DNA of 64,000 bases from Nostoc sp. DedSLP01 (GCA_034530875.2 JAVRCJ020000003.1:1-64000); one strand, 5' to 3'; numbered from the stretch's first letter, positions 37,423 through 63,998 are shown. Numbers and translations are program-made. The notes: generated by a model from the sequence alone, not told the origin.

Positions 37423-38262
37423 ATGAGAAAAATTTTGCTTATTGAATCAGAAGTAAAAGCCAAAAACTTTTTTTTAGATTGTCTTGAAGTCGGGGATTTT
37501 TATCCTATATATGCTGAAAATGGCCTAATTGGTATTCAACAAGCAAAAGAAGAATTACCCGATCTGATAATAAGTGAAATTTCGCTTCCTCAGCTTGATG
37601 GCTACAGAGTCTTAAGTATATTGCGCCAAGACCTTTCTACAGCTAGGATACCTATAATTTTTGTGACTACAAAAGCAAATCGCGCTGACATTCGTAAAGC
37701 TATGGAACTAGGAGCAGATGATTATCTGACTAAGCCTTGTACAGCAAACGAATTACTAGGGGCGATCGCAGCTTGTTTGGCAAAACGGAACCTTCTGCAA
37801 CAATGTTACAGTAATTGGCCTATTTTACCGTTACAACCATTGCCAGAATCATCATTACTTGCAGATAGTATCAAGCAAGTAAACGTTAAATTGGCATTTC
37901 CATCTAATTCTTTGTTGAGTAAAGTCTTTAATTTTATTGAGGCTAATTATTACCAACAAATTGCCCTCAGTGATGTGGCGATCGCAGTTGGCTACTCGTC
38001 AACTTATCTGACAGATTTAGTGCGTCGTCAAACAGGACAAACCGTCCAAAACTGGATTATTGAGTATCGAATGACAGCAGCTCGTGGTTTGTTATTAAAT
38101 ACTGACGAAACAATCGAGACAATTGCTGCAAAAATAGGCTATCAAAATGTGACTCATTTCTTCCGCCAGTTTCGTCAGCATCACGGAACAACGCCCCAAA
38201 GCTGGAGAACAGAGCATCGCCAGCAAGAAAATAAAGCAACAACAAAAGAATTGCTAGTTTAA
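37423..38262 (+). CDS. REC-AraC family transcriptional regulator (atypical receiver)
   Basis: KILLIE..PDLIISEI..GADDYLTKP; AraC double HTH LSDVAIAVGYS..IAAKIGYQNVTHFFRQF..TPQSWR; alternative ATGs 37399/37402. Confidence 0.9.
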   Translation: MRKILLIESEVKAKNFFLDCLEVGDFYPIYAENGLIGIQQAKEELPDLIISEISLPQLDGYRVLSILRQDLSTARIPIIFVTTKANRADIRKAMELGADDYLTKPCTANELLGAIAACLAKRNLLQQCYSNWPILPLQPLPESSLLADSIKQVNVKLAFPSNSLLSKVFNFIEANYYQQIALSDVAIAVGYSSTYLTDLVRRQTGQTVQNWIIEYRMTAARGLLLNTDETIETIAAKIGYQNVTHFFRQFRQHHGTTPQSWRTEHRQQENKATTKELLV

Positions 38263-38446
38263 TCGAAGGATAAGTAATAGTTAAATACTTAGATTAATGC
38301 AAAAATTAGCCCTATAGACAATTACATAAATTTTGTTTCTCACAATACACAACAATGCTCCAAAGTTGGGGAATGGGGTATATTAACTAACTAAAGTAGA
38401 AACAAAAACAAAAGAATTGTTACCTTTTCCGAAGGATAAGTGATAG
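38241..38446 (+). promoter_or_regulatory. Imperfect 40-bp direct repeat pair ahead of the FAAL gene (candidate AraC operators)
   Basis: 38241-38280 vs 38407-38446, 33/40 identical, core CGAAGGATAAGT. Confidence 0.65.
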
Positions 38447-38630
38447 AAAACTATTCTCAAATACTGTAAATATTACCTCTGTAAGCAGTATACAGGATAT
38501 TAACTCAACTGCTGATAGTGAAAAATAGCGTGCAATCTAACTGGGTGTAACTACGAGAATTTTTGAAATCCCGATAAATCCTTCTATTGTACAGGAATAA
38601 CTGTACTGTAATGTCATAGAGGTAAATATT

Positions 38631-40469
38631 ATGAGTACTAATTCTCAGCCTTTGCTAACTCAAAACCATTTTGCAACATTGGTTGAATTGTTGAGTTATA
38701 GGGCAAGCACTCAGTCTAAACAGCAAGCTTATACTTTTTTACAAAGTAGTGAAGCAGAAGCAGAATCTCTGACTTATGAAGCTTTACATTTGCAAGCACA
38801 GGCGATCGCAGCTAACTTACAATCTCTAAATGCTTGCGGACAAAGAGCTTTATTACTCTATCAACCAGGTCTAGATTTTATTGCTGCCTTCTTTGGATGT
38901 CTGTATGCTGGTGTTGTTGCTGTTCCCGCCTATCCACCAAGGCGAAATCAGAGTCTTTCCAGATTGCAAGCGATCGCCCAAGATGCCGAAGCAAAAGTAG
39001 TATTAACCTCTACAAAATTGCTTTCCAGCCTCCAATCTAGTTCTATTCAAGAGGGTCTAGAACTCGCTGGATTGCATTGGCTTGCTACCGATGGATTGAG
39101 TACCGACATAGCATCAACCTGGCAACCTCAGGAACTAGATAGCGATACGTTGGCTTTCATCCAATACACATCTGGTTCCACAGGCACGCCAAAAGGAGTA
39201 ATGATTAGTCATGGGAATCTGCTGCATAACGAGTACGCCATCGAGAGAGCCTTCGGACATACAGACAAAACTGTTGTTGTTGGTTGGTTGCCTGTTTTCC
39301 ATGACATGGGACTGATTGGAAATGTCTTGCAACCCTTATATTTAGGCGTTCCTTGCATTCTGATGTCCCCAGTAGATTTTCTACAAAAGCCAATCCGTTG
39401 GTTACAAGCCATATCAGACTATAAAGCAACAACTAGTGGCGGCCCGAATTTTGCTTACGATCTTTGCATTCGTAAGGTAACACCCGAACAGCTGAACAAT
39501 CTCGATCTCAGCAGTTGGGAGGTTGCTTTCACCGGTGCTGAACCTGTCCGTGCAGAGACTTTAGAGCAGTTTGCTTCTACTTTTGCACCTTGTGGCTTCC
39601 GCAAAGAAGCATTTTACCCCTGTTACGGTATGGCAGAAACCACCCTGATAGTAACCGGAGGTGAGAAAACAGCTTTACCAATTGTTTGGAATCTAGAAAA
39701 AACAGCATTAGAGCAAAACCGGATTGTTAAAGCCCACAAGGTCAAGGAAGATATACAGACGATAGTAGGTTGCGGACAAAACGTTCCAGATCTGAAAGTT
39801 GTGATTGTTGACCCACAAACATTAACCGTTTGTGCTTCCGACCAAGTTGGCGAAGTTTGGGTATCCGGGCCGAGTGTTGCTCAAGGTTATTGGAATCAAC
39901 CAGAAAAGACAGAAGAAACTTTCCATGCCTATTTAGCAGATACAGGTGCAGGCCCGTTTCTTCGCACTGGAGACTTAGGATTTTTGCAAGATGGAGAGTT
40001 ATTTATCACAGGACGAATCAAAGATGTAATTATCATCAGAGGGCAAAATCATTATCCCCAAGATATCGAACTAACTGTAGAAAAAAGCCATCCATCTCTG
40101 CGGCCTAGTAGTGGAGCAGCATTTGCCATTGATGCCAAGGGTTCTGAACGATTAGTTATTGTTCAGGAAGTAGAACGGAGTTATCTGCGCAAGTTAAACG
40201 TTCAAGAAGTCGTCGGGCAAATTAGACAAAAAGTAGCTGCACAACATGGATTGGAAGTTTATGCTACCGTACTTGTCAAAACAGGTAGTATTCTCAAAAC
40301 TTCTAGCGGTAAAATTCGGCGTCAAGCTTGTCGAGATGCGTTCCTTACTGGAAGTTTAGATGTGGTAGACGATTGGAGCGAAAATCCTCAAAACAAAGCA
40401 AAGTTTATCCATTTACAAGCCGAACTTGATTCGATGCTAGGACAACTAACATCTGGAAAACAGTCATAA
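38631..40469 (+). CDS. Fatty acyl-AMP ligase (FAAL)
   Basis: AFIQYTSGSTGTPKG, WLPVFHDMGLIG, PCYGMAETTL with FAAL insertion, LRTGDLG, KTSSGKIRR. Confidence 0.93.
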   Translation: MSTNSQPLLTQNHFATLVELLSYRASTQSKQQAYTFLQSSEAEAESLTYEALHLQAQAIAANLQSLNACGQRALLLYQPGLDFIAAFFGCLYAGVVAVPAYPPRRNQSLSRLQAIAQDAEAKVVLTSTKLLSSLQSSSIQEGLELAGLHWLATDGLSTDIASTWQPQELDSDTLAFIQYTSGSTGTPKGVMISHGNLLHNEYAIERAFGHTDKTVVVGWLPVFHDMGLIGNVLQPLYLGVPCILMSPVDFLQKPIRWLQAISDYKATTSGGPNFAYDLCIRKVTPEQLNNLDLSSWEVAFTGAEPVRAETLEQFASTFAPCGFRKEAFYPCYGMAETTLIVTGGEKTALPIVWNLEKTALEQNRIVKAHKVKEDIQTIVGCGQNVPDLKVVIVDPQTLTVCASDQVGEVWVSGPSVAQGYWNQPEKTEETFHAYLADTGAGPFLRTGDLGFLQDGELFITGRIKDVIIIRGQNHYPQDIELTVEKSHPSLRPSSGAAFAIDAKGSERLVIVQEVERSYLRKLNVQEVVGQIRQKVAAQHGLEVYATVLVKTGSILKTSSGKIRRQACRDAFLTGSLDVVDDWSENPQNKAKFIHLQAELDSMLGQLTSGKQS

Positions 40470-40601
40470 ACCCGAATCAGCTCGTAGCCGAAATACCAAC
40501 AAAAACACCGTGTAATTTAGCGTTTGCCTTAGCAAAATAATTACACACACTATTCTTTTATTGCCCATTCCTGTTTCTACCTACATTAAGGACGAAATCA
40601 A

Positions 40602-40883
40602 ATGACCCCAATTTCTACAATTTCACAAAAATCTACTCGGACACGCACAGCAGCCGAAATTCAGGAGTGGACAGTTTCTTATTTAGCGAACTTGCTAGAA
40701 GTTACTCCTGAAGAAGTTGATGTGACGATTCCTTTTGACCGTTATGGTTTAGATTCTTTAGCGGCAGTTAGTTTAACTGGCGACTTGCAAGATTGGCTAG
40801 GAATTGATGTCGATCCGACTCTAATTTACGATTACCCAACTATTGAAGGACTCGTTAAGTATTTAAGTACTAATTTAAATTAA
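40602..40883 (+). CDS. Stand-alone acyl carrier protein
   Basis: FDRYGLDSL..YDYPTI. Confidence 0.93.
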   Translation: MTPISTISQKSTRTRTAAEIQEWTVSYLANLLEVTPEEVDVTIPFDRYGLDSLAAVSLTGDLQDWLGIDVDPTLIYDYPTIEGLVKYLSTNLN

Positions 40884-40929
40884 GAATGAGAAATTCTGTT
40901 TTTCAAACTCAGGTTTTGAGGCACAAATA

Positions 40930-42288
40930 ATGACTACAGCTAACGTATTAAATGAGAAAACCACAGATTTAAATCTGCCTGGAGATAAACAGAAGAGGCA
41001 TTTTCAAGTCATTCAGAAAACATATCAGAACAACATCGACTCTGATTACACAGAGAAGATGGAATCTTTAGGCAAAAACTTTGATTACAACAAAAATAGT
41101 AATCATTTTTGGGGCGATCGCCAACTTTCTACCTTATATGGTACCCCTCTTTACAACCAAGCTTCTCAAGCGCAAAAATTAGCCCTTAACCATCTTTACT
41201 GGGTAGGGCAGTATCAACATACTGCCTCTGCGGAAGCAAACACCATGCTCTACAACCAAATTACATCTGGTGTTTTTACCCACGTTGGCGGATACGAAAC
41301 TCTTTGCCAAGAACTAGATTTTGAAACCAGTCAGGAACGCCATCACATCAATACTTTCCATAGAATTGGTTATAAGACCAAACTCGCTTTACTAGGCAAA
41401 GAATCCTTTGGTAATCCTTTGCATAAAAAATTAAATAATCAGACTCAGAAGAAATTGCTGCCTTTGCCAGAACTGCCGAAAAAAGAAGCAGTTCAAGATT
41501 TCACCTATCGCTTTCTCACCAAATTGATGCATCAAGGCAAAGACAACTACTATTCTGAGTACTTGAAAGAGAAAAGCGAATCAATTCCTACAGCAACTGG
41601 TGGACTCGCTGGCGTAACTGCATCTCCATCTGTATTTAAATACTTGAGTTTGAATTGGGGTAGTTCTCCCTTTTTAGCCGCGCAGTATTATTCGGTGCGG
41701 ATGGTTGCAAATATGTCCTTAAAAACTTATGAGTACCACTACTACAAACAGTTCAAGGAGCTAGATAAAAAGGGTGAGTTTATCCCAGATCCAATTGCTG
41801 TATCTCATTATCACTTGTTGGATGAGTCTTTCCATACCACAATGTCTCAGACCATTGCCCAAGAGGTATATAAAGATTTTCCGAAGCCAACAATGTATGA
41901 AAAGCTTCTCTCTAATGTAATTATCTTATTGGTACAAAGAGGGGTTTTGAGTGGGCTGTCTGGTGCTTTACCTGCTACATTCCGCGATGATGTGAATTTT
42001 ATACCTGCTTATTATCGTCTGCTGACATCGCCTCTATTTAAGATGTCCCAGGAAGACGCACTTTATTGGATGGAAAAATGCTTGTGTGAAGAACACGAAG
42101 GCTTTCATACGAATCACAAATTCCATCAAACTCTTCTGAATGATTTAAGACGCTTCTTTGGCCATCTAGAATATTTGTGGCCAGTTAACCGCGAAATGCG
42201 CTTAATGGCTGAAGGTGGTTCGATAGAGAAGGCAATTCAACGCAATCAAATAGCGTTTAAGCAGTTCGCTAGTTCTGTTGCTGCATAG
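40930..42288 (+). CDS. CylC-type dimetal-carboxylate (AurF-like) ACP-dependent halogenase
   Basis: ETSQERHH (ExxH) at 41323-41346 and HYHLLDESFH (HxxDExxH) at 41806-41835; directly follows FAAL-ACP. Confidence 0.85.
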   Translation: MTTANVLNEKTTDLNLPGDKQKRHFQVIQKTYQNNIDSDYTEKMESLGKNFDYNKNSNHFWGDRQLSTLYGTPLYNQASQAQKLALNHLYWVGQYQHTASAEANTMLYNQITSGVFTHVGGYETLCQELDFETSQERHHINTFHRIGYKTKLALLGKESFGNPLHKKLNNQTQKKLLPLPELPKKEAVQDFTYRFLTKLMHQGKDNYYSEYLKEKSESIPTATGGLAGVTASPSVFKYLSLNWGSSPFLAAQYYSVRMVANMSLKTYEYHYYKQFKELDKKGEFIPDPIAVSHYHLLDESFHTTMSQTIAQEVYKDFPKPTMYEKLLSNVIILLVQRGVLSGLSGALPATFRDDVNFIPAYYRLLTSPLFKMSQEDALYWMEKCLCEEHEGFHTNHKFHQTLLNDLRRFFGHLEYLWPVNREMRLMAEGGSIEKAIQRNQIAFKQFASSVAA

Positions 42289-42423: not shown

Positions 42424-45400
42424 GTGGAACCCATAGCTATTGTTGGTATTGGTTGTCGCTTTCCTGGCGCTAACAATCCAGAGGAATTCTGGCATATTTT
42501 ATCTAATGGCATTGATGCTATATCCGAAGTCCCTAAAGAACGATGGGATGTAGATAATTTCTACCATCCCCAACCTGCCACACCAGGCAAAATGAGTACT
42601 CGTTATGGTGGATTTATTGAGGGAGTAGATAGTTTCGATCCGGCCTTTTTTGGCATTTCCCCGCGTGAGGCTGAACGTATAGATCCCCAACAGAGGTTAG
42701 TTCTCAAAGTTGTTTGGGAGGCTTTGGAAAATGCTGCAATTGTGCCTGCTAGCCTCTCTGGTAGTCAGACAGGAGTGTTTATTGGAATTGGCAACTATGA
42801 TTATGGAATTGTCATTTCCAAAGATTTAGAGCGCATCAATGCCTACGATGGCACCGGTAATACACTTGGTGTTGCTGCAAATCGGGTGTCTTATCTGCTC
42901 AACCTGCGGGGCCCGAGTTTAGCGATAGAAACATCCTGTTCTTCCTCGCTGGTAGCGATACATTTGGCTTGTCGCAGCCTGGAAAATGCCGAGTCCGATT
43001 TATGCTTGGTGGGAGCAGTTAGTTTAATGTTGTCGCCACAACAAACTATTATTTACTCCCAAGCTCGGATGATGGCATCTGATGGGCGTTGTAAGACCTT
43101 CGATGCTAGTGCTGATGGTTACGTTCGCGGTGAAGGCTGTGGGATTGTCGTACTCAAGCGTCTAAGGGATGCGATTAGAGATGGCGATCGCATTCAAGCA
43201 GTCATCCGCGGTACGGCAATTAATCAAGATGGTTTGAGTAATGGCTTGACTGCTCCTAACGGGCCTTCGCAACAGGCTGTGATTCGCCAAGCTTTAGAAA
43301 ATGCAGGGGTTGAGCCGTCCCAAATCAACTATGTAGAAGCACATGGAACCGGTACATCTTTAGGAGATCCGATTGAAGTCAGGTCTTTAAAAACTGTACT
43401 GATGCCAGGACGCAGTGCCGAGCAGCCTTGTTTGATTGGTTCGGTAAAAACCAATATCGGTCATTTAGAAGCTGCGGCTGGGATGGCTGGCTTAATCAAG
43501 GTAGTACTGGCACTACAGCACAAAAAAATTCCAGCCCACCTGCATCTTAAAGAGTTGAATCCATACATTTCCTTGGCTGGGACACCTATGGGTATCCCTA
43601 CAGAACTCCAGCCTTGGAATGTGAATGGAGGAACTCGTTTGGCAGGTATTAGTTCTTTTGGTTTTGGGGGTACTAATGCCCACATCATTGTCGAGGAAGC
43701 AGTCTCTAAAGAGGGTGTGGGTACAGGCACATACACAGATCCCGAGAGTTTTTTCCCCACGTCATCACCTCTCGCCCTCACCGCGTCTGCTTCTCGTCCT
43801 TTACATTTATTGAGTTTGTCTGCAAAAAGCGAACAAGCTTTACAAGATTTGGGCCAGCGCTATGTAGATTTTCTGGCAAGGTATCCAGAGTTATCTCTGG
43901 CTGATATTTGCTTTACTGCTAGTACGGGGCGATCGCATTTTGATTATCGCTTGGCTGTGAGTGCTGAATCTGTCGAACAATTAAAAGAGCAGTTGAGCGC
44001 TTTCGTTGCCAGACAGCAGTCTGGTGAATTAGTAACCGGCCAGCTAAGTAGCCGCAAACAACCAAAGACAGCCTTTTTGTTCACTGGGCAGGGTTCTCAG
44101 TATGTGAAAATGGGGCGCGAGTTATACGAAACCCAGCCCACTTTCCGTAAAACCTTACAGCAGTGCGATGAAATTCTGCGTTTGTATCTTGACAAATCAC
44201 TGCTAGATGTGCTTTATCCCACCGATAATGACACAGTTGGTCTAGTAGATGAAACTGCCTATACTCAACCAGCACTGTTTGCTTTGGAATATGCCTTATG
44301 CAAACTTTGGCAGTCTTGGGGTATTGCACCTGCTGTAGTCATGGGGCATAGTATCGGAGAATATGTCGCGGCTTGTGTAGCTGGCGTATTCAGCCTAGAA
44401 GACGGATTGAAGCTGATTGCTGCCCGGGGACGGCTGATGCAAGCTCTACCTGCTAATGGCATGATGGTAGCAGTCATGACCAGCCCAGAACAAATAGCAG
44501 AACATATTCAAGGCTACGAAAAGAATATTGCGATCGCTGCTATTAACGGGCCGCGGAGTGTGGTGATTTCTGGGGAACGGCAGGCGGTAGAAACATTGTG
44601 CCAGTCCCTAGACACAGATGGAATCAAAACGAAACAATTAACGGTGTCTCATGCCTTCCATTCTCCATTAATGGCACCGATGATTGAGGAGTTTGCAGCA
44701 GTTGCGAAAACCGTTAACTACTCGCTTCCTCAAATTAAATTAGTTTCTAACGTTACTGGCAAACTCATCAGCCAAGAAGTAGCTAATCCTGAGTACTGGT
44801 GCAATCACGTCCTGCAACCAGTATTATTTGCCGAGGGAATGCAGACTTTAGCACAGCAAAAGTGTGATGTATTATTAGAAGTTGGCCCCAAACCAATATT
44901 ATTGGGTATGGGCAAGCAGTGCTTGTCTGATGCTGAAATCCAAAAACTAGTATGGTTGCCGAGTTTACGTCCAGGCCAATCCGATTGGCAGCAATTACTC
45001 CAGAGTTTGGCACAAATGTACGTGCAAGGAGTAGCAATAGACTGGAAAGGATTTGACCGAGATTACATCCGTCAGCGCGTTCTATTACCTACATATCCCT
45101 TTCAGGAACAACGCTATTGGGTGGAACTTGAAGAAAATCAGTCAGCGAACAAGCAAGTGATTTCTACGAATCTTGTAGAAACTCCTATGTTGCACTTACT
45201 ACAGCAAGGAGAAATTCAACAGCTAACAGAACAAATTGCTAAAACAGCGAATTTATCTGCCCACGAGCAACAATTTTTACCGAAGTTGTTAGAAGTTCTG
45301 GCAAAGCAGTACAAACACGAATCAATAGCGGCCTCAATTCAAGATTGGCTTTACAAAATTGAGTGGCAACCCAAGGCAAGAAAGATTGCAGCAGGTGACA

Positions 45401-47271: not shown

Positions 47272-47272
47272 C

Positions 47273-53389: not shown

Positions 53390-54664
53390 ATGAGCTATTA
53401 CACTCTTGCTTTTATCTTCACTACTTTTCCCCCTGAAGTAAGTGGTTCGTCACAATTTAACTGGGAGCGCGTACAATGGTTGGCACAACAAGGAATATAC
53501 CGTGTTGTTGTACTGACACCAGATTGCCAAAACCCATCAGCTTTGCCATCAGTACCATCAGATTTGTGTGAAAGGTTAATTATTGAAAGCTATCCCTCAA
53601 AACCTTGGCTTCCTTATGAACTGAATTATGTACCTACAGTAGCAGCAGAACGTCAAATTAGCGAGAGGTTGGCTTATTACAAACCACATCTAATTACTCT
53701 AGTGGATATAGAGAGGGCTTTCTTGTTTAGTACATGGCAATTCCCTGGCAAACGCTATGCAAAAGAAAACCAGATTCCATATATTACCGAATACCAAACA
53801 GATTATTACAATTTTGCAGGTAGCTATCCTGCTTGGCAATTTTTACGAGACTTAGTTATCCGTCCTTTGACCAACTATTTATATAGTCGATTCGATACCA
53901 CATTAGTTCCTAGTAAATTAGTCAAGAACAATCTCCAAAAAATTGGAATTAAAAATTCTCTCTTTGTACCCTTTTTTGGTATCGATATTTCCTTGTATAG
54001 CCCCCAGCGACGGAATCGAAAATTATTGGATAAGTGGTTAAGTGACGAGGAAAAAGATAACAAAGTTTTACTTTTTTTAGGGCGTTTGAGTTTAGAAAAA
54101 CGAGTGGATTTATTGATAGAAGCATTTGCAAGGTTAAAAACTAGACAAGAAAAGTATTCTTTGATAATTGCTGGAGATGGGCCTGCTGCTGCTGTCAAAA
54201 AATTAAAGAGCCTTGCTGCCTCTATTTCCAACATCCATTTTACAGGTTTTATTCACGGAGAAGAAAAAGCAAATTTGTTAGCTTCATGTGATGTATTTTG
54301 CAACCCTTCACCTTACGAAACTTTCGGACGAACAGTTGTGGAAGCCATGGCTTCAGGGATACCAACTGTAACTGTTAATAGCGGTGCAGTTTCTGAATAC
54401 GCAATTGATAATGTAAATTCCTATCTTGTCCCACATGATAATGTTGAAGAGTTCGCCAATACCATTGAAAAAGCCTTGTTTAAAGATAATACAGCAATAA
54501 TTAACCGCGCTCTAGAAGATGCCAATCAGCTCTCTAGCAAACAAGGATGCAAAAATCTTAATGAGTATTATCAACATTTATTAGGATTGTATAGTAATCC
54601 GCAAATAAATGCAAAAAAACTAACCGAAAATCGAGTTTATTTAGAGCAAGTTTCTCATAAATAA
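53390..54664 (+). CDS. GT4-family glycosyltransferase
   Basis: FLGRLSLEKRVD, IAGDGP, PSPYETFGRTVVEAMASG. Confidence 0.9.
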   Translation: MSYYTLAFIFTTFPPEVSGSSQFNWERVQWLAQQGIYRVVVLTPDCQNPSALPSVPSDLCERLIIESYPSKPWLPYELNYVPTVAAERQISERLAYYKPHLITLVDIERAFLFSTWQFPGKRYAKENQIPYITEYQTDYYNFAGSYPAWQFLRDLVIRPLTNYLYSRFDTTLVPSKLVKNNLQKIGIKNSLFVPFFGIDISLYSPQRRNRKLLDKWLSDEEKDNKVLLFLGRLSLEKRVDLLIEAFARLKTRQEKYSLIIAGDGPAAAVKKLKSLAASISNIHFTGFIHGEEKANLLASCDVFCNPSPYETFGRTVVEAMASGIPTVTVNSGAVSEYAIDNVNSYLVPHDNVEEFANTIEKALFKDNTAIINRALEDANQLSSKQGCKNLNEYYQHLLGLYSNPQINAKKLTENRVYLEQVSHK

Positions 54665-54761: not shown

Positions 54762-56288
54762 ATGACTAATACTCACTATGATGTCATAATTATAGGAACT
54801 GGTGCTGGTGGTGGAACTTTATTACATCGGTTAGCACCAAGCGGTAAGAAAATTTTAGTATTAGAAAGAGGTAATTTTCTCCCTAGAGAAAAAGCTAACT
54901 GGAGTTCAAAAGAAGTTAATCAAAATCGCCGCTATTCTACATCAGAGACATGGTACGATAAAAACGATAAAGCTGTGCATCCGATAACGCATTATTATGT
55001 CGGAGGTAACACCAAATTTTATGCCAGTGCATTACAGAGATTTCGCCAACGAGATTTTGAAAAAGTTATTCATGAAGGTGGTATTTCGCCAGAATGGCCG
55101 TTAAAATATAACGACTTTGCCCCCTACTACACCCAAGCGGAAAAACTCTATGAAGTCCACGGTAAACGCGGTCTAGATCCCACTGAACCAGACACTACTG
55201 AGGAATACCCGTTTCCAGCAATCAGTCACGAACCCTACGTGCAAGAAATCCACGATCGCTTAAAGGATAACTTCTTGCACCCATTTTTTGTACCTCTTGG
55301 GATTAAACTGAATGAAGCCCAGCGTCATTTAAGCGCCTGTATTCGCTGTGATACTTGCGATTGCTTCCCATGTTTAATCAATGGTAAATCTGATGCCGAT
55401 ATTAACTGTGTACGTCCGGCAATGACTCATGCAGATATTACCTTACTAACTCAAGCAAAAGTTTTACGTCTGCATACGAGTGCATCAGGTCGTGAAATAA
55501 CTGGAGTAGAAGCACAAATCGGCGCTCAACGTCAAATATTTTCTGCGGATATTGTTGTTGTTGCATGTGGAGCAATTAATTCGGCAGTTTTGTTACTCCA
55601 GTCTGCTAACGAGCGACATCCCAACGGATTAGCTAATAGTTCTAATCTCGTAGGGCGTAACTATATGTATCATAACAACGGTGTTGTCATCAGTTTATCA
55701 CAGCAACAAAAGCCGACAGTTTTTTCCAAAACACTGGCTATATATGATTTTTATTGGGGTGATAAAGAATTTCCTTTCCCAATGGGAATCGTGCATTCGC
55801 GGGGTAGTGTCGATAAAGATTTAATAGCCACGTATGGGCCGCCTTTTATGCCTAGCTTCATACCTGAAGAGTTATCAAAATATTCCTTTAGTTGGTGGAT
55901 TATCTCAGAAGATTTACCAGATATTAATAATCGCGTCTGGATTAAAGATAATAAAATCGTGCTTGATTGTACTAACAACAATATGCAAGCATTTAATCGT
56001 TTAATGCAGCGTTGGGTTGAAACATTAAAATTAATCAATCAAGGTAAATCTTTATATTTTAAACATCGAATTGGGCTAGAAGGTGTTGCACATCAATGCG
56101 GTACTTGTGTTTTTGGCGAAGATCCAACCACTTCAGTTCTGAATTTGAATTGCTGCACCCATGATGTTGAAAACCTTTACGTTGTTGATGGCAGTTTTTT
56201 CCCTTCATGTGCTGCTGTAAATCCTTCACTAACGATTATGGCAAATGCCTTACGTGTTGGAGACCATTTGTTAAAAGTACTCGCCTAA
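54762..56288 (+). CDS. GMC-family FAD oxidoreductase
   Basis: IIGTGAGGG, VGGNTKFY, CxxCxxC, HQCGTC, VVDGSFFP, NPSLTI. Confidence 0.9.
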   Translation: MTNTHYDVIIIGTGAGGGTLLHRLAPSGKKILVLERGNFLPREKANWSSKEVNQNRRYSTSETWYDKNDKAVHPITHYYVGGNTKFYASALQRFRQRDFEKVIHEGGISPEWPLKYNDFAPYYTQAEKLYEVHGKRGLDPTEPDTTEEYPFPAISHEPYVQEIHDRLKDNFLHPFFVPLGIKLNEAQRHLSACIRCDTCDCFPCLINGKSDADINCVRPAMTHADITLLTQAKVLRLHTSASGREITGVEAQIGAQRQIFSADIVVVACGAINSAVLLLQSANERHPNGLANSSNLVGRNYMYHNNGVVISLSQQQKPTVFSKTLAIYDFYWGDKEFPFPMGIVHSRGSVDKDLIATYGPPFMPSFIPEELSKYSFSWWIISEDLPDINNRVWIKDNKIVLDCTNNNMQAFNRLMQRWVETLKLINQGKSLYFKHRIGLEGVAHQCGTCVFGEDPTTSVLNLNCCTHDVENLYVVDGSFFPSCAAVNPSLTIMANALRVGDHLLKVLA

Positions 56289-56432: not shown

Positions 56433-57587
56433 ATGAAAAAAGTGCATTTAATGATATATGATTTAGGCGCAGGTCACCGGAGTACAGCTAATGCTTTGAA
56501 AGAAGTTATCGAAAAACGAAAATTGTCATGGGAAATTAAAATTGTTGATGTCTTTAAAGAAATTTTTGGCACGACTACGCCCCACTATATCTACAACAAT
56601 TTTGTATTGAAAAAAAAATGGGCAAGACTTATTAATGATTCTCTATCTGTACCTTTTTTCAAGCAGCAAATTCGCTTCAACCATAATGCTTGGCAAAAGC
56701 TTCTGAGAAATTATTGGCGGCAGCACCAGCCTGATATGGTAGTTTCATTGCTTCCACTTGTGAACCGAGTGCTTTACGAAAGCTTACAGGCAGAACTGCC
56801 AGGTACTCCCTTTGTGACTTCCATGACGGATTTTGCTGATTCTCCCCCTAACTTTTGGATAGAAAAGCAAGAGCAATATCTCATTTGTCCTTCTGAGAAA
56901 GCAGTTCACCAAGCCGAATCTTGCGGTTATCCAGAAAACAGAATTTTCCGCACTTCAGGAATAATTATCCAGCCTCGTTTTAATCAGCCTATTACTATCG
57001 ATCGCTACATTCAAAGACAACGCTTGGGACTAGATCCAAATTTACCCACCGGCTTAGTTATATTTGGTAGTCACGGCTCAAAGGAAATGATCGAGATTAC
57101 CGAGAGTATAGAGCAATCATCGCTGAAGTTGCAACTCATATTTATATGCGGACGTAATGAAAAACTAGCAACAGATTTGCAAAATCGTCAAAGCCGCTTA
57201 CCCAAGTTTGTGGAAAACTTTACTACTCAAATTCCTTACTATATGCATTTGTCCGATTTCTTCATTGGCAAACCGGGTAGTGTCGGTATTAGTGAAGCTG
57301 TGGCAATGAATTTGCCAGTAATTACAGAATGTAATGCTTTAACGCTCCATCAAGAAAAACCCACAACTGAGTGGCTGGCAAGTAATGAGTTCGGAATTGT
57401 AGTTAATAATTTTCGCAAAGATATCACTCAAGCGATCGCACAGCTCATTGAGCCAGAAAATTTTGCTCGCTATCAGGCTAATGTCAGAGCTTACAATAAT
57501 CAGGCTGTATTTGAAGTGGCTGATATTTTGGCAGGCATCCTGGAATCCCAGACTACTCACAATCGCCTCGTGGCTCAAAGAGCTTGA
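56433..57587 (+). CDS. GT28/MGDG-synthase-like glycosyltransferase
   Basis: GAGHRSTA, TDF, ICGRNEKL, SDFFIGKPG, ISEA, QE. Confidence 0.85.
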   Translation: MKKVHLMIYDLGAGHRSTANALKEVIEKRKLSWEIKIVDVFKEIFGTTTPHYIYNNFVLKKKWARLINDSLSVPFFKQQIRFNHNAWQKLLRNYWRQHQPDMVVSLLPLVNRVLYESLQAELPGTPFVTSMTDFADSPPNFWIEKQEQYLICPSEKAVHQAESCGYPENRIFRTSGIIIQPRFNQPITIDRYIQRQRLGLDPNLPTGLVIFGSHGSKEMIEITESIEQSSLKLQLIFICGRNEKLATDLQNRQSRLPKFVENFTTQIPYYMHLSDFFIGKPGSVGISEAVAMNLPVITECNALTLHQEKPTTEWLASNEFGIVVNNFRKDITQAIAQLIEPENFARYQANVRAYNNQAVFEVADILAGILESQTTHNRLVAQRA

Positions 57588-57717: not shown

Positions 57718-58845
57718 ATGAGATTTGATTGGCTGATAATCGGAGCGGGATATTCAGCCTGTGTCATGGCTGAACGACTGGCAACTCAACTTGCACACAG
57801 GGTCTTAATTGTCGAGCAAAGAGATCGCATTGGCGGCAATGCCTATGACTACTACAACGAGCATGGCATTTTAACTCATAAATACGGGCCTCACATCTTT
57901 CACACTAAGTCGAAAAAAGTCTGGGATTATCTCTCTCAATTTACAGAATGGAGACACTACTATCACCATGTGCTAGGAGTAGTGGAAGGTAAGAAAGTTC
58001 CCATTCCTTTTAACCTCAATTCCCTTTATGCTCTTTTTCCTCCAAAGTATGCAGAAAAACTAGAAAATTTACTTCTAGAAAACTTTGGTTTTGGGGTAAA
58101 AGTACCAATTTTAAAACTGCGTGAAAGTGCCAGCGGTGACCTAGCTTTTTTAGCTGATTATATTTATGAAAATATTTTCCTCCGCTACACCATGAAGCAG
58201 TGGGGAGTGAAACCAGAGGAATTGGATCGAGGAGTAACCGGACGCGTTCCAGTCTACATCAGTCGGGATAACCGCTACTTTCAAGACCCTTACCAAGCTA
58301 TGCCGAAACTTGGCTACACCGAAATGTTCCGTCGAATGTTGGCTCACCCCAATATTAAGGTGCTTTTAAATACAGATTATCGAGAAATCATCAACGACGT
58401 TAAATTTAATCGCATACTTTGCACTGGGCCGATTGATACTTTTTTTGATTATATGTATGGCGAGTTACCTTATCGGAGTTTGCGCTTTGAATTTGAGACT
58501 TTAGATCGAGAGTGTTATCAAGAAGTTGGTACAGTCAATTATCCCAACGACTACGAAATCACCCGCATAACCGAGCAGAAGTATTTGTCAGGACAAACTT
58601 CTCCCAAAACTACCCTGGTGATGGAATATCCGCAAGCTTATATCCCAGGAAAAAACGATCCCTATTATCCCATCCTCAATGACGATAACCGCGATCGCCT
58701 GAACCTATATCTCAAAGAGGTAGAAAAACTCAACGGTACAGTATTGTTTGCAGGACGACTTGCAGATTACAAGTATTACGATATGGATCATGCAGTCCTT
58801 CGCGCACTGGGTTTGTTTGAGAAAGAAATAGCAAATTCAAAATAA
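57718..58845 (+). CDS. glf: UDP-galactopyranose mutase
   Basis: IIGAG, RIGGNAYD, HKYGPHIFHT, KQWG, RITE, YYP, GRLADYKYYDMD. Confidence 0.95.
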   Translation: MRFDWLIIGAGYSACVMAERLATQLAHRVLIVEQRDRIGGNAYDYYNEHGILTHKYGPHIFHTKSKKVWDYLSQFTEWRHYYHHVLGVVEGKKVPIPFNLNSLYALFPPKYAEKLENLLLENFGFGVKVPILKLRESASGDLAFLADYIYENIFLRYTMKQWGVKPEELDRGVTGRVPVYISRDNRYFQDPYQAMPKLGYTEMFRRMLAHPNIKVLLNTDYREIINDVKFNRILCTGPIDTFFDYMYGELPYRSLRFEFETLDRECYQEVGTVNYPNDYEITRITEQKYLSGQTSPKTTLVMEYPQAYIPGKNDPYYPILNDDNRDRLNLYLKEVEKLNGTVLFAGRLADYKYYDMDHAVLRALGLFEKEIANSK

Positions 58846-58860
58846 GGTCTGGGAAAAAAA

Positions 58861-58950: not shown

Positions 58951-59008
58951 AGACAATGTTTGTGCGTAAGTCCTGAGAAATTGCGAAGCATCTGGAGTGT
59001 TTTTAACG

Positions 59009-60550
59009 ATGAATCGATTTAGCGAACAAGCGATTGCGCTCTTGGTGATGGGTTTGGCACTTTTTATGGCAAATCTCGATGATACCGTCATGAATGTAGC
59101 GCTTCCCAAGATTCAAATTAGTCTAGGTTCCGATCTCTCGCAATTGCAGTGGATTCTTAACGCCTACACCCTGACTGCTGCTAGTTTAATATTGACGAGT
59201 GGGACATTGGGCGATATATATGGGCGCAAACGAATTTTCCTTACAGGCCTGGTAGTTTTCACAATTGCTTCTATAATTTGCAGTCTAGCTCCCAATTTAG
59301 GAATTTTGATTGCTGGGCGTACTTTTCAGGGAATCGGTGCTGCTGTCTTAGTAACAATTTCTCTGTCTATTCTCACTGAAAAGTTTCCTGAGCCAAAGCA
59401 GAGAGCTAAAGCTCTTGGTATCTGGGCTGGGATATCAGGAATAGCTCTGGTTGCCGGGCCTGTGCTTGGTGGGTTGTTAGTAGATAACTTGGGATGGCAG
59501 AGTGTGTTCTTTCTCAACGTGCCCCTTGGCGCGGTCGTTTTTTGGCTGACCTCCCGCGTTATCAGAGAAAGTAAAAATCCCGGAAAGCAGCGTCTTGATG
59601 TGCCAGGTTTGGTGTTGAGTATAGTGTTGCTGGCATCACTGACCTACGCACTTACCGAGGGTAACGCTGGCCTGTGGCGATCCCCGTTGATTGTTTTTTT
59701 GCTGGCGATGGCTGGATTGAGCCTTTTGGGTTTTTTGCTTGTTGAGTCCCGCAGTAGCCACCCAATGCTGCCACTACATTTATTCAATAACCCAACCTTT
59801 GCTGTAGTCAACATCGTCTCAGTTTTAGTGTTTTTCACTCTCGTCAGCTTGCTGTTCATCTTCAGCCTGTTTTTACAGCAAGTACAGGGTTACTCGGCGG
59901 CGGCTACTGGTGTGCGCTTTTTGCCGATGAATGCGGCTTTTGTAATTGCATCACTTTGTTCTGGGTGGTTCGCTGCTCGTTTGGGGTGGCGGTTTGGAAT
60001 TGCAACGGGACTATTGCTTGCAGGCATGGCTGCCTTATCGTTTATACAAGTAAATGCCGATACGGAGTATGGAGCCATCTGGTGGAAGCTTATTCTCTGT
60101 GGGTTTGGTGCTGGCTTAACACTAGCGCCTTTGACAGCAGCAGCCATGAGTACCGTAGCCCCGACTCAAACAGGAATTGCCTCAGGGATACTTAACACTA
60201 GTAACCGTCTCGGCAGTGTTCTGGGAGTTGCCCTACAGGGAACAATTTTGACACAACGCCTTGCTTCGGATTTGAGGCGATCGCTTTCTGCTTGGGATCT
60301 ACCCTCAAACCTAAAACAACAGCTTATTGTCGATGCTTTGCACGGTGCAGCGAAAGTTCCTAGCGACCTCCCAGGCAGTATTTCTGAGGTCGATCTGGAG
60401 CAAGCGATTAATAATGCCTTCGTATCAGGTCTACATGCAGCTATACTCGTAGCTAGTTTTGCCCTTCTAACTGGAGCATTTTTGATTCTGGTATTTGTTC
60501 AACCAACTTTTAAGGAAGCCACCAGCAATTCTCGTCTTTCTGTTAAGTAA
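59009..60550 (+). CDS. DHA2-type (EmrB/QacA-like) MFS efflux transporter
   Basis: LDDTVMNVALP, GTLGDIYGRKR, GRTFQGIG, GPVLGG, WQSVFFLNVPLG; many TM segments. Confidence 0.92.
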   Translation: MNRFSEQAIALLVMGLALFMANLDDTVMNVALPKIQISLGSDLSQLQWILNAYTLTAASLILTSGTLGDIYGRKRIFLTGLVVFTIASIICSLAPNLGILIAGRTFQGIGAAVLVTISLSILTEKFPEPKQRAKALGIWAGISGIALVAGPVLGGLLVDNLGWQSVFFLNVPLGAVVFWLTSRVIRESKNPGKQRLDVPGLVLSIVLLASLTYALTEGNAGLWRSPLIVFLLAMAGLSLLGFLLVESRSSHPMLPLHLFNNPTFAVVNIVSVLVFFTLVSLLFIFSLFLQQVQGYSAAATGVRFLPMNAAFVIASLCSGWFAARLGWRFGIATGLLLAGMAALSFIQVNADTEYGAIWWKLILCGFGAGLTLAPLTAAAMSTVAPTQTGIASGILNTSNRLGSVLGVALQGTILTQRLASDLRRSLSAWDLPSNLKQQLIVDALHGAAKVPSDLPGSISEVDLEQAINNAFVSGLHAAILVASFALLTGAFLILVFVQPTFKEATSNSRLSVK

Positions 60551-60719
60551 AGGTCAAATAGTAAATTTTAGAGGCAGATTTACAACAGGTAATACCAATT
60601 TGAAAAAAGAATGCGACAGATACATAAGCTCTAAATCTGTTGTTATAGGTAACTTTATTTTTTGAGAATTTCTACTCAATAAAAACCTAAATATTTTCAA
60701 TTAAGGATTTAAACAACTT

Positions 60720-60758
60720 GCTTATGTGATTTCCAAACCTGAAGTAGATTTAAAGTTA
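60720..60758 (+). pseudogene. Short relic of a paralog of the downstream beta-propeller gene
   Basis: 60729-60752 identical to 62316-62339; translates AYVISKPEVDLKL vs SFVISKPEVDLDL. Confidence 0.55.
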
Positions 60759-61769
60759 ACAAGTATTTTTATTAACATCAAAACTTCAGAAACCTAACTC
60801 CCTTAGCCTCCCTTTTCTACAAGAAAATGGGGGTTGCAAAACCTCTCTCTGTTTCCAAGAGAGGTGTAGAGAGGAATTGATAGTACACTTTATGGCTTTT
60901 CCAAATTCTCTAAAGAGAGAAATATAGTAGATGACTTCATTCGACATCTGCAAATAAAGTGCGAGTACGATAGAAAGCTGTTTATTTTTTTCTATTAGCT
61001 CTTTATTCAGCTTTTTAGCAGTTAATTGCTGTTCTATTTAATATCACAAAATGTTTTATTTTGTGTACCAAATTTGCTAAATTTTTTATAAAGTTTAGAT
61101 GAATTCTTAAGAATAGCCAAATAATGTCTTGACAGACTGAGCATGAATTTACAATACTACTAACAAATACTTATGTGCGTATAAAAACGCTGATTTAAGT
61201 CTGTTTTTTGGCAAAAGTTTTTCCTCTAGACGAGTTATTTCATTTATTTGCTATTACACTTTTCTTTTGAAAGTGAGCATTAATTTAAGGTTTTTGCTGC
61301 AAGAAATATGTCATATTTTACTGACACATGACGCTAAGATTTTTTAGCACAGCGGACTTGTGCTGGAATTAATCAAATTTTCAGGGTTGCATCTTCGCAG
61401 GATAACTAAGGCTACGACAGACAAAGCATTATAGTACTGCACATGATGTAAGATAGCTTTACCATTTTTACTGAAGTATGGATATTGAAGTGCATAAAAA
61501 TACTTCCTAAATAAATATTAATTTAGGAATTAATAATTGGGTTGGTTTACTATCGCGACCATTATTTTTCTGCTAGCCTGAGCATTTTTGATTTTGGTGT
61601 TTGTTAGACCAAGTTTGAACTAAACGGTTGAAAAATCTTTACTTTTTCTCAAAAAATAAACGCACAAAATAAATTTTTTAGGTGCATCTACACGAACTAA
61701 GGCAAAGTAGCGACAAATGTAAATGTTACATCTCAAAAAACTGAAATTCTAAAAAAGGACTGAAATGAA

Positions 61770-63998
61770 ATGGCTACTCCTAAAGTAATCTCTTCGTTAT
61801 TTACACCTGCCAGCGATCTAGTCTTTGGAGGGCAAGTAAATTTTGAAGCCATTTTCGGGCGTGCAGGAAACGATCTGATTTACAGTTACGATCCTGATGT
61901 AGATAATACTCAAAGTCAAAATATTGATTTTTTGTTTGGCGACCTATTTGATAATTCACCAGAAGAATTTGGGGTTATTCTTAATATTCAACAAGGTAAT
62001 CTCTTAGCTATTTTAGATACAAATATACCATCAGTAGGAAAGGATAAATTTATTCTTGGCGACAAAAACCAACCCTACTACACAAATAATGGCAGCCCAG
62101 GCAATTTACTCACCACAGATTTTCTTGGTTTGAATGAGTACGCCTTAATTTATGATTTCAGTCCGTCTCAAGATACTATACGGCTAAATGGCAAAAAAGA
62201 AGACTATCGAATAGTAGAAATTAATGGATTAAAGGTTGAGGGAATCGAACCACTTTTTTATGGAAAGGCAATTTTTTCAATCCAACAGGGAATACCTGAC
62301 CTCGTTAGTTTTGTAATTTCCAAACCTGAAGTAGATTTAGATCTTAATGGATCGTATTTCGAGTTTATAGGCGAAAAACCACTAACAAAACCAGCAAAAA
62401 AGAAGATTGGGCAATTAGGAACTACTGCTATAGATGTTGGTACTGCTGCCGCTACAGATCCTTCGGGCAATGTATACATAGCAGGATTTACTGGCGGCTC
62501 TTTGCAAGGAACCAGTAAAGGTTCTACAGATGGCTGGGTAATTAAATATGATAAAAGTGGCAATCAGTTGTGGGGTAAACAGATTGGTAGTTCTAATTTG
62601 GATCAAATCTATTCTACAGTCACAGACAAGGACGGTAACTTTTATTTAGCAGGGCCTACAGGGGGCAACTTATTTGGAGCCAAACAATCACAAGATAGTG
62701 ATGTTTGGGTAGCTAAGTACGACAAAAATGGTAATCAGTTGTGGGGTAAACAGTTTGGAACTAATGTAACTGGAGGTTTTGCTAATGCTAGCTTTGGTCT
62801 AGATGTAGATGAAAAGAACAATGTCTACTTATCGGGATTAGCAATTAAGGAAAATACAAATCTGAACATTTTCAATTTTCCCGTTCAAGATGATTCTTGG
62901 GTGGCTAAATTCGATAGTAATGGTAATCAGCAGTGGTTTACGCAAATTAAAGATCCGAATGCGGGTTTCCCTTTTAACCTAGCTCCCTTTTTTGACGAAA
63001 CTTACGATCTTGCCGTCGATAAGGATGGCAATAGTTACCTTTCAGGATGGACTCAAGGTTTAGTAAAAGAGTCAGACCCGTCTCGAAATCTTTTAAAGTA
63101 CGATGCTTGGTTGGCGAAGGTCAATCCCGGCGGTCAGGTACAGTGGGTTCAGCAGTTTGGGAGTAAAAATGAGGGTACTGAATTTTCATGGGCTGTTGAC
63201 ACTGATAGTAAGGGAAATATCTATGCTACCGGATGGACTACAGGCGACTTAGGAACAAAGGATAAAAAGGGTAGCAAAATCGGATCTTACGATGTTTGGC
63301 TGGCTAAGTTTACCCCAGATGGAACTCAGGTGTGGGCTAAACAGTTTGGCTCTAAAGGTGATGATGGCGTCTACTTATCTGACTTAGAGATTGATTCACA
63401 AGACAACATCTTCTTGACAGGATATTCTAACGATAAGTTAGGAAAAGGCAACAAAGATACGGCTTATAATGCTTTTGTCGCAAAGTTCGACACTAACGGC
63501 ACAAACAAGTGGATTCAACAGTTCGGCAGCAAATCCAGACTCGACTACGCTACAGGTCTTACTGCTGACGATACTGGTAGGCTTTTCGTTACTGGAGTTA
63601 CAGATGGCTTATTGGGCAGTGGTACTAGTGCAAATAATGGCTCGGCTTTAGATGCTTGGGTGGCCGAACTTAATGCAAATAATGGTAAACTACGAAAATT
63701 TACTGGCACTGCAAACGATGTAATTAGTATTACCGATCCCGGGCCAATCCCCACTATTGATGTAACTGATGATTTTGTGACTGATGATAAGTTACCTAGT
63801 GGTGATAATATCATTGACCCCGCTAAGGGAATCAATACGGACGTCAAGTCATTTAATTATGGACAATTCTCTTCTAAACTTGGCGATATATTCGACCCTA
63901 ACGAACAAAACTCTTTTGCTTCAGTATTGTCTCGGGGAGTTAGTAGTGGTAATGCTCCCTTCCTCAGTAATGATGATTTAAAATTTTTACAACGTTAA
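61770..63998 (+). CDS. CylK/BrtB-like protein: RTX-like Ca-binding N-terminal region + SBBP beta-propeller (candidate alkyl-halide-using alkylating enzyme)
   Basis: GRAGNDLIY, DFLFGD, DKFILGD..PYY, ALIYDFSPSQDTIRLNG, then about seven D..GN.Y..G.T.G..D.W..K.D..G.Q.W..Q.G repeats; stop TAA 63996-63998. Confidence 0.78.
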   Translation: MATPKVISSLFTPASDLVFGGQVNFEAIFGRAGNDLIYSYDPDVDNTQSQNIDFLFGDLFDNSPEEFGVILNIQQGNLLAILDTNIPSVGKDKFILGDKNQPYYTNNGSPGNLLTTDFLGLNEYALIYDFSPSQDTIRLNGKKEDYRIVEINGLKVEGIEPLFYGKAIFSIQQGIPDLVSFVISKPEVDLDLNGSYFEFIGEKPLTKPAKKKIGQLGTTAIDVGTAAATDPSGNVYIAGFTGGSLQGTSKGSTDGWVIKYDKSGNQLWGKQIGSSNLDQIYSTVTDKDGNFYLAGPTGGNLFGAKQSQDSDVWVAKYDKNGNQLWGKQFGTNVTGGFANASFGLDVDEKNNVYLSGLAIKENTNLNIFNFPVQDDSWVAKFDSNGNQQWFTQIKDPNAGFPFNLAPFFDETYDLAVDKDGNSYLSGWTQGLVKESDPSRNLLKYDAWLAKVNPGGQVQWVQQFGSKNEGTEFSWAVDTDSKGNIYATGWTTGDLGTKDKKGSKIGSYDVWLAKFTPDGTQVWAKQFGSKGDDGVYLSDLEIDSQDNIFLTGYSNDKLGKGNKDTAYNAFVAKFDTNGTNKWIQQFGSKSRLDYATGLTADDTGRLFVTGVTDGLLGSGTSANNGSALDAWVAELNANNGKLRKFTGTANDVISITDPGPIPTIDVTDDFVTDDKLPSGDNIIDPAKGINTDVKSFNYGQFSSKLGDIFDPNEQNSFASVLSRGVSSGNAPFLSNDDLKFLQR

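Follow-up and report, generated by a model that had tools for sequence, protein, structure and literature searches.

The 64,000-nucleotide stretch of Nostoc sp. DedSLP01 DNA analysed in this study (GCA_034530875.2 JAVRCJ020000003.1:1-64000; hereafter the window) carries a polyketide synthase (PKS) gene cluster at positions 37423-63998 of the plus strand. It is probable that this cluster, a one-module paralogue of the nostochloroside cluster ngl, makes a chlorinated alkane-1,2,4-triol glycoside, which would likely be coupled to other lipids by a CylK-like enzyme through displacement of the chloride. What is new here is a shortened ngl-type variant with different sugar genes, from a widespread orphan family. 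The cluster type has been published, and its key step, the conversion of a C20 thioester into a C21 vicinal diol, is still a hypothesis in the papers found; the one-module version predicts an odd-carbon 1,2,4-triol of defined mass and thus tests the proposed function of NglG independently of ngl.

Kinship to the nostochloroside cluster

As set out in the parts of Glasser et al. (2024, PMC10849952) drawn upon here, ngl (pks3) is the nostochloroside cluster of Nostoc punctiforme ATCC 29133. Its first half comprises a thioesterase (TE) gene in reverse orientation, followed by genes for a FAAL (fatty acyl-AMP ligase), an acyl carrier protein (ACP), CylC, a ketosynthase (KS)-acyltransferase (AT)-ketoreductase (KR)-ACP module, a KS-AT-DH-ER-KR-ACP module that includes dehydratase (DH) and enoylreductase (ER) domains, a non-elongating KS-ACP protein (C-Q-H), NglG and a short-chain dehydrogenase/reductase (SDR), while the second half encodes an FAD oxidase, an SDR, an epimerase, a GMC protein, a glycosyltransferase (GT), a methyltransferase, a CylK homologue with an RTX tail, a membrane-fusion protein and DevC. 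The product starts from palmitate and has a C21 chain with 6-O-methylgulose on O1, 2-OH, 6-OH and 12-Cl; NglO oligomerises nostochloroside via ethers, probably at O6, NglF is proposed to pass the chain on unextended, and NglG together with a reductase was proposed by the authors to account for the extra carbon and the vicinal diol (PMC10849952).

A genomic locus with the ngl gene order (G020) served as the sequence stand-in for ngl; a named locus, L038, matches that order throughout the part it covers, and the best-matching named loci are from Nostoc. Nine genes are common to the window and ngl in conserved order, at 42-68% identity, namely those for the FAAL (67%), the ACP (65%), the CylC-type halogenase (66%), the NglD-type module (60%), the C-Q-H non-elongating KS-ACP protein (60%), NglG (67%), the NglH-type SDR (68%), the GT4 glycosyltransferase (58%) and the CylK homologue (42%), the last of which shares the Arg/Glu/Tyr triad of its ngl counterpart; in addition, both systems lack a TE domain on the PKS. 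The kinship to the nostochloroside cluster that had been suggested in the original prediction is thus borne out, and the docked enzyme of unassigned function and the SDR listed there are NglG and NglH homologues. Judged by these identities, the window retains the ngl termination block (non-elongating KS, NglG, SDR and GT4).

Unlike ngl, the window has one elongating module rather than two, the fully reducing NglE (KS-AT-DH-ER-KR-ACP) being missing, and it is devoid of the FAD oxidase, second SDR, epimerase, NglL-type GMC protein and O-methyltransferase (the 6-O-methylgulose genes), as well as of the RTX tail, the HlyD/DevC exporter (none is present downstream either) and the flanking TE. No counterparts of NglE, NglI, NglJ, NglK, NglN, NglP, NglQ or NglR were found in the window cluster. 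Its additions are a different GMC protein, which at 23% identity to the ngl-order GMC is not an NglL orthologue, a GT28-like transferase, a UDP-galactopyranose mutase (Glf) and, in place of the ngl exporter, a major facilitator superfamily (MFS) protein. The cluster would work like ngl but falls outside ngl membership, in that the second module was looked for and found missing, as were the features for gulose, methylation and export.

The same genome harbours a second CylC/CylK cluster (G000:C10:87166-128747) with both modules; its TE and eight core genes, FAAL through SDR, share 81-90% identity with the ngl-order locus. A quick tree of 43 NglG homologues joins the window copy to those of L013, L014 and L017 at support 97 and places the copy on C10 among the ngl-order loci at support 100. 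Based on the 42-68% identities, the closer C10 copy and the NglG tree, the window cluster is regarded as a paralogue and not an orthologue of ngl. In the C10 cluster the gulose cassette is replaced by genes labelled, by sequence reading, as UbiA-like, HAD-like and methyltransferase genes, a cassette shared by L040, L042 and L048, and a 1766-aa protein with two CylK units in tandem and an RTX tail is encoded; the predicted product of this cluster is a C21 lipid of nostochloroside type whose head group differs.

The cyl cluster shares with the window the FAAL-ACP-CylC start and a CylK homologue with R105 and Y473 equivalents, whereas the window has no type III PKS/resorcinol synthase, has Glu in place of Asp440, as in NglO, and carries glycosylation genes. 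The type I PKS clusters of chlorosphaerolactylate/nocuolactylate and columbamide likewise have FAAL and ACP genes upstream of a CylC homologue and, downstream of it, a type I PKS, and FAAL-ACP-CylC-PKS clusters are filed in a broad type I PKS class in the part of that survey drawn upon (PMC8406957). The brt system (BrtJ/BrtB) is similar in its chlorinated-glycolipid logic, and the CylK homologue of the window shows traits of type I secretion like those of BrtB (PMC13712857), but the window lacks DarA/DarB and its scaffold would come from a type I PKS and NglG-like release. No Pfam family of resorcinol-forming type III PKS or of DarA/DarB was matched among the 14 cluster proteins. Compared with what we take to be the gene content of the chlorosphaerolactylate/nocuolactylate and columbamide clusters, the window has no nonribosomal peptide synthetase, a single halogenase, the NglG-SDR block and a CylK homologue. 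Literature searches, with most subscription journals outside their reach, yielded no product for any NglG-containing cluster besides ngl, and neither nostochlorosides nor CylK are mentioned in the accessible portion of the preprint 10.64898/2026.09.06.749771.

Halogenation cassette and apparent loss of a module

A FAAL-ACP-CylC halogenase cassette had been recognised in the original prediction and stands confirmed by gene order, the FAAL and ACP genes lying directly upstream of the halogenase gene, and by nine family residues kept in the halogenase. The top NCBIfam single-domain matches of the FAAL are FAALs, below cut-off, and it is 80-82% identical to its counterparts in G002, G064, G081 and G084. 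The halogenase matched only AurF in Pfam, sub-threshold (E 1.5e-4); its residues E102, Q135-E136-x-x-H139, E268 and H295-x-x-D298-E299-x-x-H302 are invariant in 16 aligned homologues, and E268 sits 30 residues before D298, as E252 does relative to D282 in NocO. The nine residues, including the QExxH and HxxDExxH motifs, are those given for CylC-family halogenases and essential in NocO, in the part of that study drawn upon (PMC12101540); in QExxH, which is specific to halogenases, the Gln is retained. On this basis the protein is assigned to the CylC family, its chlorinating activity and the position of chlorination being predicted. In the proposed pathway, the FAAL would load a fatty acid (C16 in ngl) onto the ACP and the CylC homologue would chlorinate the chain.

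PKS1 consists of an intact KS (C172/H307/H347), a malonyl-type AT (S643, HAFH), a KR with a Trp-motif fingerprint identical to that of NglD-type modules, and an ACP, with no DH, ER or TE domain; no DH or ER match was obtained with Pfam among the 14 proteins, and this single elongating module would add one malonyl unit and leave a hydroxyl. In PKS2 the KS carries C210/Q346/H387, the AT has Gly661 in place of the Ser and an 80-residue deletion relative to L013, and an ACP is present. Gln stands in place of the KS His in 30 of 32 non-elongating KS genes of related loci and Asn in one, the remaining one being unreadable. This C-Q-H KS is expected to hand the chain, unextended, to its own ACP, by analogy with NglF.

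The FAAL, halogenase and first module of G064, G081 and G084 are 81-85% identical to those of the window, but these loci have a second KR module. The N-terminus of PKS2 is a module-2-type docking sequence, residues 1-50 being 88% identical to G064 module 2 and 38% identical to the G064 non-elongating KS, and residues 300-450 are nearer to the non-elongating KS (72, 66 and 64%) than to module 2 (46, 60 and 44%). A breakpoint test used 36 sites at which seven module-2 proteins differ from seven non-elongating KS proteins: up to position 187, PKS2 has nine module-2 residues and one of the non-elongating type, and beyond it six and 12, respectively (148 of 5000 shuffles were as good), the sequence being mixed again after residue 346 in this single-breakpoint test. 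Two control non-elongating KS proteins had zero module-2 residues at 33 and 34 informative sites, and for L041 the test fell short of significance (1068 of 5000 shuffles). In the simplest reading of these sequences, module 2 appears to have been lost via a crossover between two KS domains, with the docking partner of module 1 left in place, and such retention of docking compatibility suggests selection for a working assembly line. In G002 a module was lost by another crossover, near residue 1100, the KR and the C-terminal docking end of module 2 being kept; on this reading, two separate crossovers each removed a module and left compatible docking domains.

Among 40 related loci, each covering up to 10 kb on either side of an NglG homologue, 15 have the one-module arrangement (halogenase, one module and non-elongating KS), with a Trp-type KR in three and another KR type in 12, two types which would presumably give opposite hydroxyl configurations. 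The family amounts to a natural experiment in PKS editing in which module number and KR type vary. The loci L020, L021, L023, L051, G064, G081 and G084 have two KR modules without DH/ER and are predicted to direct 1,2,4,6-tetraol glycolipids; two CylK-like genes each are present in G081 and G021, the latter also having a split FAAL and a frameshifted non-elongating KS gene. The region with L021 has been catalogued as a T1PKS resembling carbamidocyclophanes, no product being shown in the portion of that catalogue drawn upon (PMC8073705).

Proposed chain release, glycosylation and coupling

In ngl, a C16 starter and two modules give a C20 chain (5-OH, 11-Cl), and the product is C21 with its substituents shifted by one, from which it follows that the vicinal diol and the additional carbon are introduced post-PKS; with the fully reducing module missing, as in the window, the hydroxyl would move from C6 to C4. 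The protein predicted to release the chain and to add one carbon is the NglG homologue, which begins with a TubC_N docking domain (Pfam). It would dock on the ACP tail of PKS2, whose pattern E-x-(F/L)-E-(I/L/V) is conserved in 26 aligned ACPs, including free ACPs of polyunsaturated fatty acid (PUFA) synthase-type loci. Sequence searches with the core matched the docking domain alone and the ESM Atlas gave no usable match. A model built from an 81-sequence alignment (pLDDT 92, pTM 0.92) predicts a class II aldolase fold for the C-terminal half (residues ~328-622), which matches RhuA (Z 14.9, rmsd 3.2 A, 187 residues aligned; Foldseek E 1.3e-5) and FucA (Z 14.7); the weak template matches reported for NglG by Glasser et al. 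(PMC10849952) agree with this fold. The best structural match of the middle domain, a CoaB-like protein (Z 9.5), is too weak for assignment. H520, H522, H580, D493, S491, S451-G452, K455, R377 and C546 are invariant in the alignment, and the spacing of H520/H522/H580 is like that of the zinc-site histidines H92/H94/H155 of FucA and H141/H143/H212 of RhaD (PMC6202814). The NglG-like protein thus resembles RhuA and FucA in predicted fold and in the HxH...H triad, and differs from them in its 12-13% identity, large inserts, added middle and docking domains and invariant Cys, and in that its proposed acceptor is an acyl thioester and not an aldehyde. Ser-Gly451-452, Ser491, Arg377 and Lys455 presumably resemble a phosphate pocket such as that of FucA. 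The preferred chemistry is one in which the metal-bound enediolate of a ketose phosphate attacks the thioester, perhaps through Cys546, with C-C cleavage leaving a chain extended by one CH2OH carbon as a 1-hydroxy-2-ketone, which the SDR would reduce to the 1,2-diol.

If the triol scaffold is accepted, the same 1,2,4-triol could also arise by a different release step, a possible but rather doubtful course, in which an O2-/iron-dependent NglG-like enzyme condenses, or is handed, an extra malonyl unit and decarboxylates it oxidatively, C1 then deriving from acetate and not from a sugar. Its carbon count is equally good for ngl (C22 minus CO2), and among the enzymes sharing the fold are pyruvic oxime dioxygenase and a decarboxylase, both at Z 12.3, and TqaM at Z 11.1. 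However, the top structural matches are sugar-phosphate aldolases (Z 14-15), although the gap of 2-3 Z units is modest, the invariant residues have the appearance of a phosphate pocket, as presumed above, the non-elongating KS is without the His that malonyl decarboxylation requires, and its AT is dead. In favour of the main reading, NglG homologues sit in a consistent gene context: of the 39 loci with a gene upstream, 36 have one ending in the ACP motif directly before the NglG homologue; in 39 of 40 a Rossmann reductase lies no more than two genes after it; and none of the 40 stretches yielded a match to the ngl-type thioesterase. As the loci are kin, these counts are not independent.

NglG homologues were detected in 45 of 127 genomes of the genus and in 30 of 401 genomes drawn from the phylum, and several hundred in PKS clusters were noted by Glasser et al. 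(PMC10849952). Many follow a free ACP, which shares the conserved tail, behind PUFA-synthase-type genes. The latter clusters comprise PfaA/BC/D-like genes, usually a PapA-like acyltransferase, the free ACP, the NglG homologue and often a reductase and GT4, and were present with NglG in all eight genomes fetched (loci L043-L045, L047, L050, L052, L067-L068 and L108-L119); their NglG homologues form a separate group in the quick tree, and no product was found for them in the literature searches. Homologues without the docking domain (L120-L199) retain the His triad and the Cys, and of 120 listed, the 17 that name an organism are all of Patescibacteria type, 103 naming none. The next gene falls into one sequence cluster in 63 of 79 of these loci; the four of its 85 members that were checked are HisKA_7TM proteins, the two full-length ones being histidine kinases, and a PlsC-type acyltransferase occurs in 30 of 80 loci (two checked). 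The docking-less NglG and the 7TM kinase look like a lipid-signal synthase/receptor pair, for which an alpha-hydroxyketone signal is a guess; CqsA/CqsS of Vibrio is an alpha-hydroxyketone signal system. 1,2-Diol membrane lipids occur in thermophilic bacteria, and the idea that distant NglG homologues make them was discarded as unsupported, all 17 named organisms being of Patescibacteria type.

The GT4 and GT28-like enzymes would attach one or two sugars, one of them likely a galactofuranose provided via Glf and added by the GT28-like enzyme, and the GMC protein may, at a guess, oxidise a sugar hydroxyl. In the 40 loci, some of which are cut by contig ends, close homologues of GT4 (five) and of the GT28-like gene (20) never occur together, Glf (15) and the window-type GMC (six) always accompany a close GT28-like gene, and the combination of GT4, GMC, GT28-like gene and Glf is found in none. 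The closest locus, L013 (69-90% identity, core genes 82-90%, GT4 90%), has GT4 alone with a GMC remnant. The sugar genes of the window consequently look like a hybrid of two sugar cassettes, which may yield a diglycoside or two product series. A 42-bp copy (81%) of the SDR 3' end lies in the 3' end of GT4. As side observations, Glf is 91-94% identical to homologues from loci whose NglG-like protein is only 66-70% identical, which suggests recent exchange or strong constraint, and a lone GT4 gene (G000:C23:30405-31646), 74% identical to that of the cluster, lies beside an apparent RiPP-type locus, outside PKS clusters.

The resulting lipid would be exported by the MFS protein, and the CylK homologue would build ethers or esters at the C-Cl carbon. 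That a CylK-type alkyl-halide-coupling enzyme is encoded, as originally proposed, is corroborated by the alignment of the propeller with CylK structures (7ron/7fh6, E about 1e-102) and by R31, E410 and Y444, which align with CylK R105, D440 and Y473 and are kept in all 17 homologous domains aligned; it would likely displace an alkyl chloride. The protein is acidic (pI 4.45) and Gly-rich (11.3%), lacks Cys and a hydrophobic signal peptide, and has a single GxxGxD-type repeat and no RTX tail. Acidity, Gly-richness and the absence of Cys and of a signal peptide are traits listed for secreted BrtB in the part of PMC13712857 drawn upon, and the window enzyme is likely secreted as well. Ahead of its gene lies a conserved non-coding leader; across 596 nt it shares 77% identity with the DNA preceding the second of the CylK-like genes in G081, being as conserved as coding DNA, and it gave no Rfam match at gathering score. 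A 19-codon remnant at 60717-60773 resembles residues 179-197 of the CylK-like protein (E 2e-4 to 4e-3 in a 1.3-kb search), and perhaps derives from a lost second copy.

With palmitate as starter, the predicted aglycone is C19H39ClO3, with [M+H]+ of 513.319 for the monohexoside, C25H49ClO8, and 675.372 for the dihexoside, C31H59ClO13; the identical arithmetic gives the published mass of nostochloroside A, 555.3658. A halogenase acting on palmitate at C7, as in ngl, would place the chlorine at C10; both the chain length and this position are guesses. Several points weigh against this product and the route to it. The FAAL and the halogenase, at 66-67% identity to those of ngl, do not reveal how long the starter is or where the chlorine sits, and the predicted product lacks the O6 hydroxyl thought to serve NglO, so the window CylK homologue must use another nucleophile, for which O4, O2, a sugar hydroxyl and a free fatty acid are open candidates. 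With hhalign, the profile of the NglG family gave no significant match to class II aldolases (probability 0.5%, E 0.12), with HxH and xHG in register, and no aldolase match to the NglG-like core was found among PDB sequences or in Pfam; the aldolase assignment therefore stands on the predicted model, and the class II aldolase fold is also used by dioxygenases and decarboxylases. One NglG homologue, P0132, carries a C-terminal thioesterase fusion, and ngl has a flanking thioesterase, the related loci having been examined for 10 kb each way. No biochemical study of NglG was found within the reach of the literature searches, and its role in ngl itself is a hypothesis. Finally, the sugar-gene mosaic is unseen in the 40 loci, so that some of its genes may be passengers, and the window GMC gene lacks the second SDR that adjoins it in L019, L027, L035 and L046.

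It is unlikely that no chlorinated glycolipid is made, whether because the locus is a silent or partly degenerate mosaic or because its diiron enzyme acts as a hydroxylase or desaturase. The mosaic non-elongating KS gene with its truncated AT0, the duplicated junction after GT4 and the CylK-like remnant in the gap at 60.7 kb would suit such decay, but all 14 open reading frames (ORFs) are intact, catalytic motifs are kept in the FAAL, halogenase, KS, AT, KR, SDR, GT4, GMC and CylK homologue, the halogenase has its Gln, and the CylK partner needs an alkyl halide. A chlorinated glycolipid, the product class named in the original prediction, is upheld as a prediction. Still less likely is the version put forward there, in which a chloro-3-hydroxyacyl chain is freed as the acid or moved to a sugar and then glycosylated; a single KR module does yield a 3-hydroxyacyl thioester, and the thioesterase fusion in P0132 fits such a release, but neither a TE nor an acyltransferase is among the 14 genes (Pfam), and the characterised pathway of the non-elongating KS, NglG and SDR gives an ether-linked 1,2-diol, one carbon longer and odd-numbered, without a carboxyl. 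That the cluster is an ngl orthologue making nostochloroside A itself, as was also considered, is very improbable despite the nine shared genes in the same order, given the missing DH-ER module, gulose, methyltransferase and export genes, the low GMC identity and the quick-tree placement of the window NglG apart from the group holding the C10 copy.

The preferred reading, a chlorinated 1,2,4-triol glycoside formed through NglG-like one-carbon addition, could, with much more caution, be carried further. The cluster would then be a minimal natural example of an assembly-line ending in which an aldolase-fold enzyme adds a sugar-derived carbon to an acyl-ACP to give a 1-hydroxy-2-ketone, an ending that would be used in Cyanobacteria on modular and PUFA-type synthases and, in docking-less form, beside 7TM histidine kinases in Patescibacteria; here it might lead to a galactofuranose-bearing chloro-1,2,4-triol glycolipid, cross-linked at the cell surface by a secreted CylK homologue via a nucleophile new to the family. 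Such a nucleophile could widen the known chemistry of alkyl-halide-using enzymes.

Gene layout and flanking DNA

The 14 genes (Table 1) are co-oriented and occur in the order originally listed, the longest minus-strand ORF in the region being 119 aa. Pfam matches above the curated cut-off were obtained for 13 of the 14 proteins, the exception being the halogenase, and the earlier domain calls hold when judged by Pfam, motifs and the CylK structure match.

Table 1. Features of the cluster in the Nostoc sp. DedSLP01 window
Feature	Position	Strand	Basis
Receiver-AraC regulator	37423..38262	+	Pfam; adjacent, cluster membership unproven
Fatty acyl-AMP ligase (FAAL), NglA-like	38631..40469	+	NCBIfam single-domain matches, homology
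Free-standing ACP, NglB-like	40602..40883	+	PF00550
CylC-family diiron halogenase, NglC-like	40930..42288	+	Nine family residues
PKS1: KS-AT(malonyl)-KR(Trp-motif type)-ACP, single elongating module, NglD-like	42424..47271	+	Pfam, motifs
PKS2: non-elongating KS(C-Q-H)-AT0-ACP with SESEMFEI docking tail	47273..50293	+	Motifs
NglG-like protein: TubC_N docking, alpha/beta middle and predicted class II aldolase-fold domains	50334..52202	+	Pfam, predicted model
SDR, NglH-like, predicted ketone reductase	52275..53153	+	TGxxxGxG, NNAG, YxxxK motifs
GT4 glycosyltransferase, NglM-like	53390..54664	+	Pfam
GMC flavoprotein, glucose/fructose dehydrogenase large-subunit type, Cys cluster	54762..56288	+	PDB matches 6a2u, 8k6k
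MGDG-synthase/GT28-like glycosyltransferase	56433..57587	+	PF06925; MGD1 4wyi E 1e-23
UDP-galactopyranose mutase (Glf)	57718..58845	+	TIGR00031, 435 bits vs cut-off 303.75
DHA2-family MFS exporter	58997..60550	+	TIGR00711 above cut-off
Conserved non-coding leader 5' of CylK-like gene	60955..61540	+	DNA identity to G081
CylK/BrtB/NglO-family beta-propeller, predicted to use alkyl chlorides, no RTX tail	61770..63998	+	CylK structure match

The cluster had been thought possibly to extend past the end of the window. Beyond position 63998, contig C3 carries three minus-strand genes (65, 87 and 232 aa), short or unrelated, followed by a sensor-like gene and ruvC; the 232-aa protein is a TPMT-like methyltransferase with one weak match (29%, L044) among related-locus proteins. 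The cluster is therefore taken to end inside the window. The regulator, counted as a member in the original prediction, is unproven as such: its best matches in the 127 genus genomes (19 candidates scored per genome) reach 61-65% identity, and among related clusters, the six retrieved together with their upstream DNA have no regulator-type gene directly 5' of the FAAL gene. In the absence of a close orthologue in the genus search and of such flanking, it was left without assignment. The upstream regions of three genes, those for the regulator, the FAAL and the CylK-like protein, were found to share no motif, an Rfam scan of 36200-64000 gave nothing at gathering score, and a promoter scan was at chance level (13 found versus 11.0 +/- 3.5). 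Two minor features lie upstream: a short repeat after thrS at 36500-36600, with 19 matches elsewhere in the genome, and a 42-bp near-palindrome at 37222-37263, ahead of the regulator gene.

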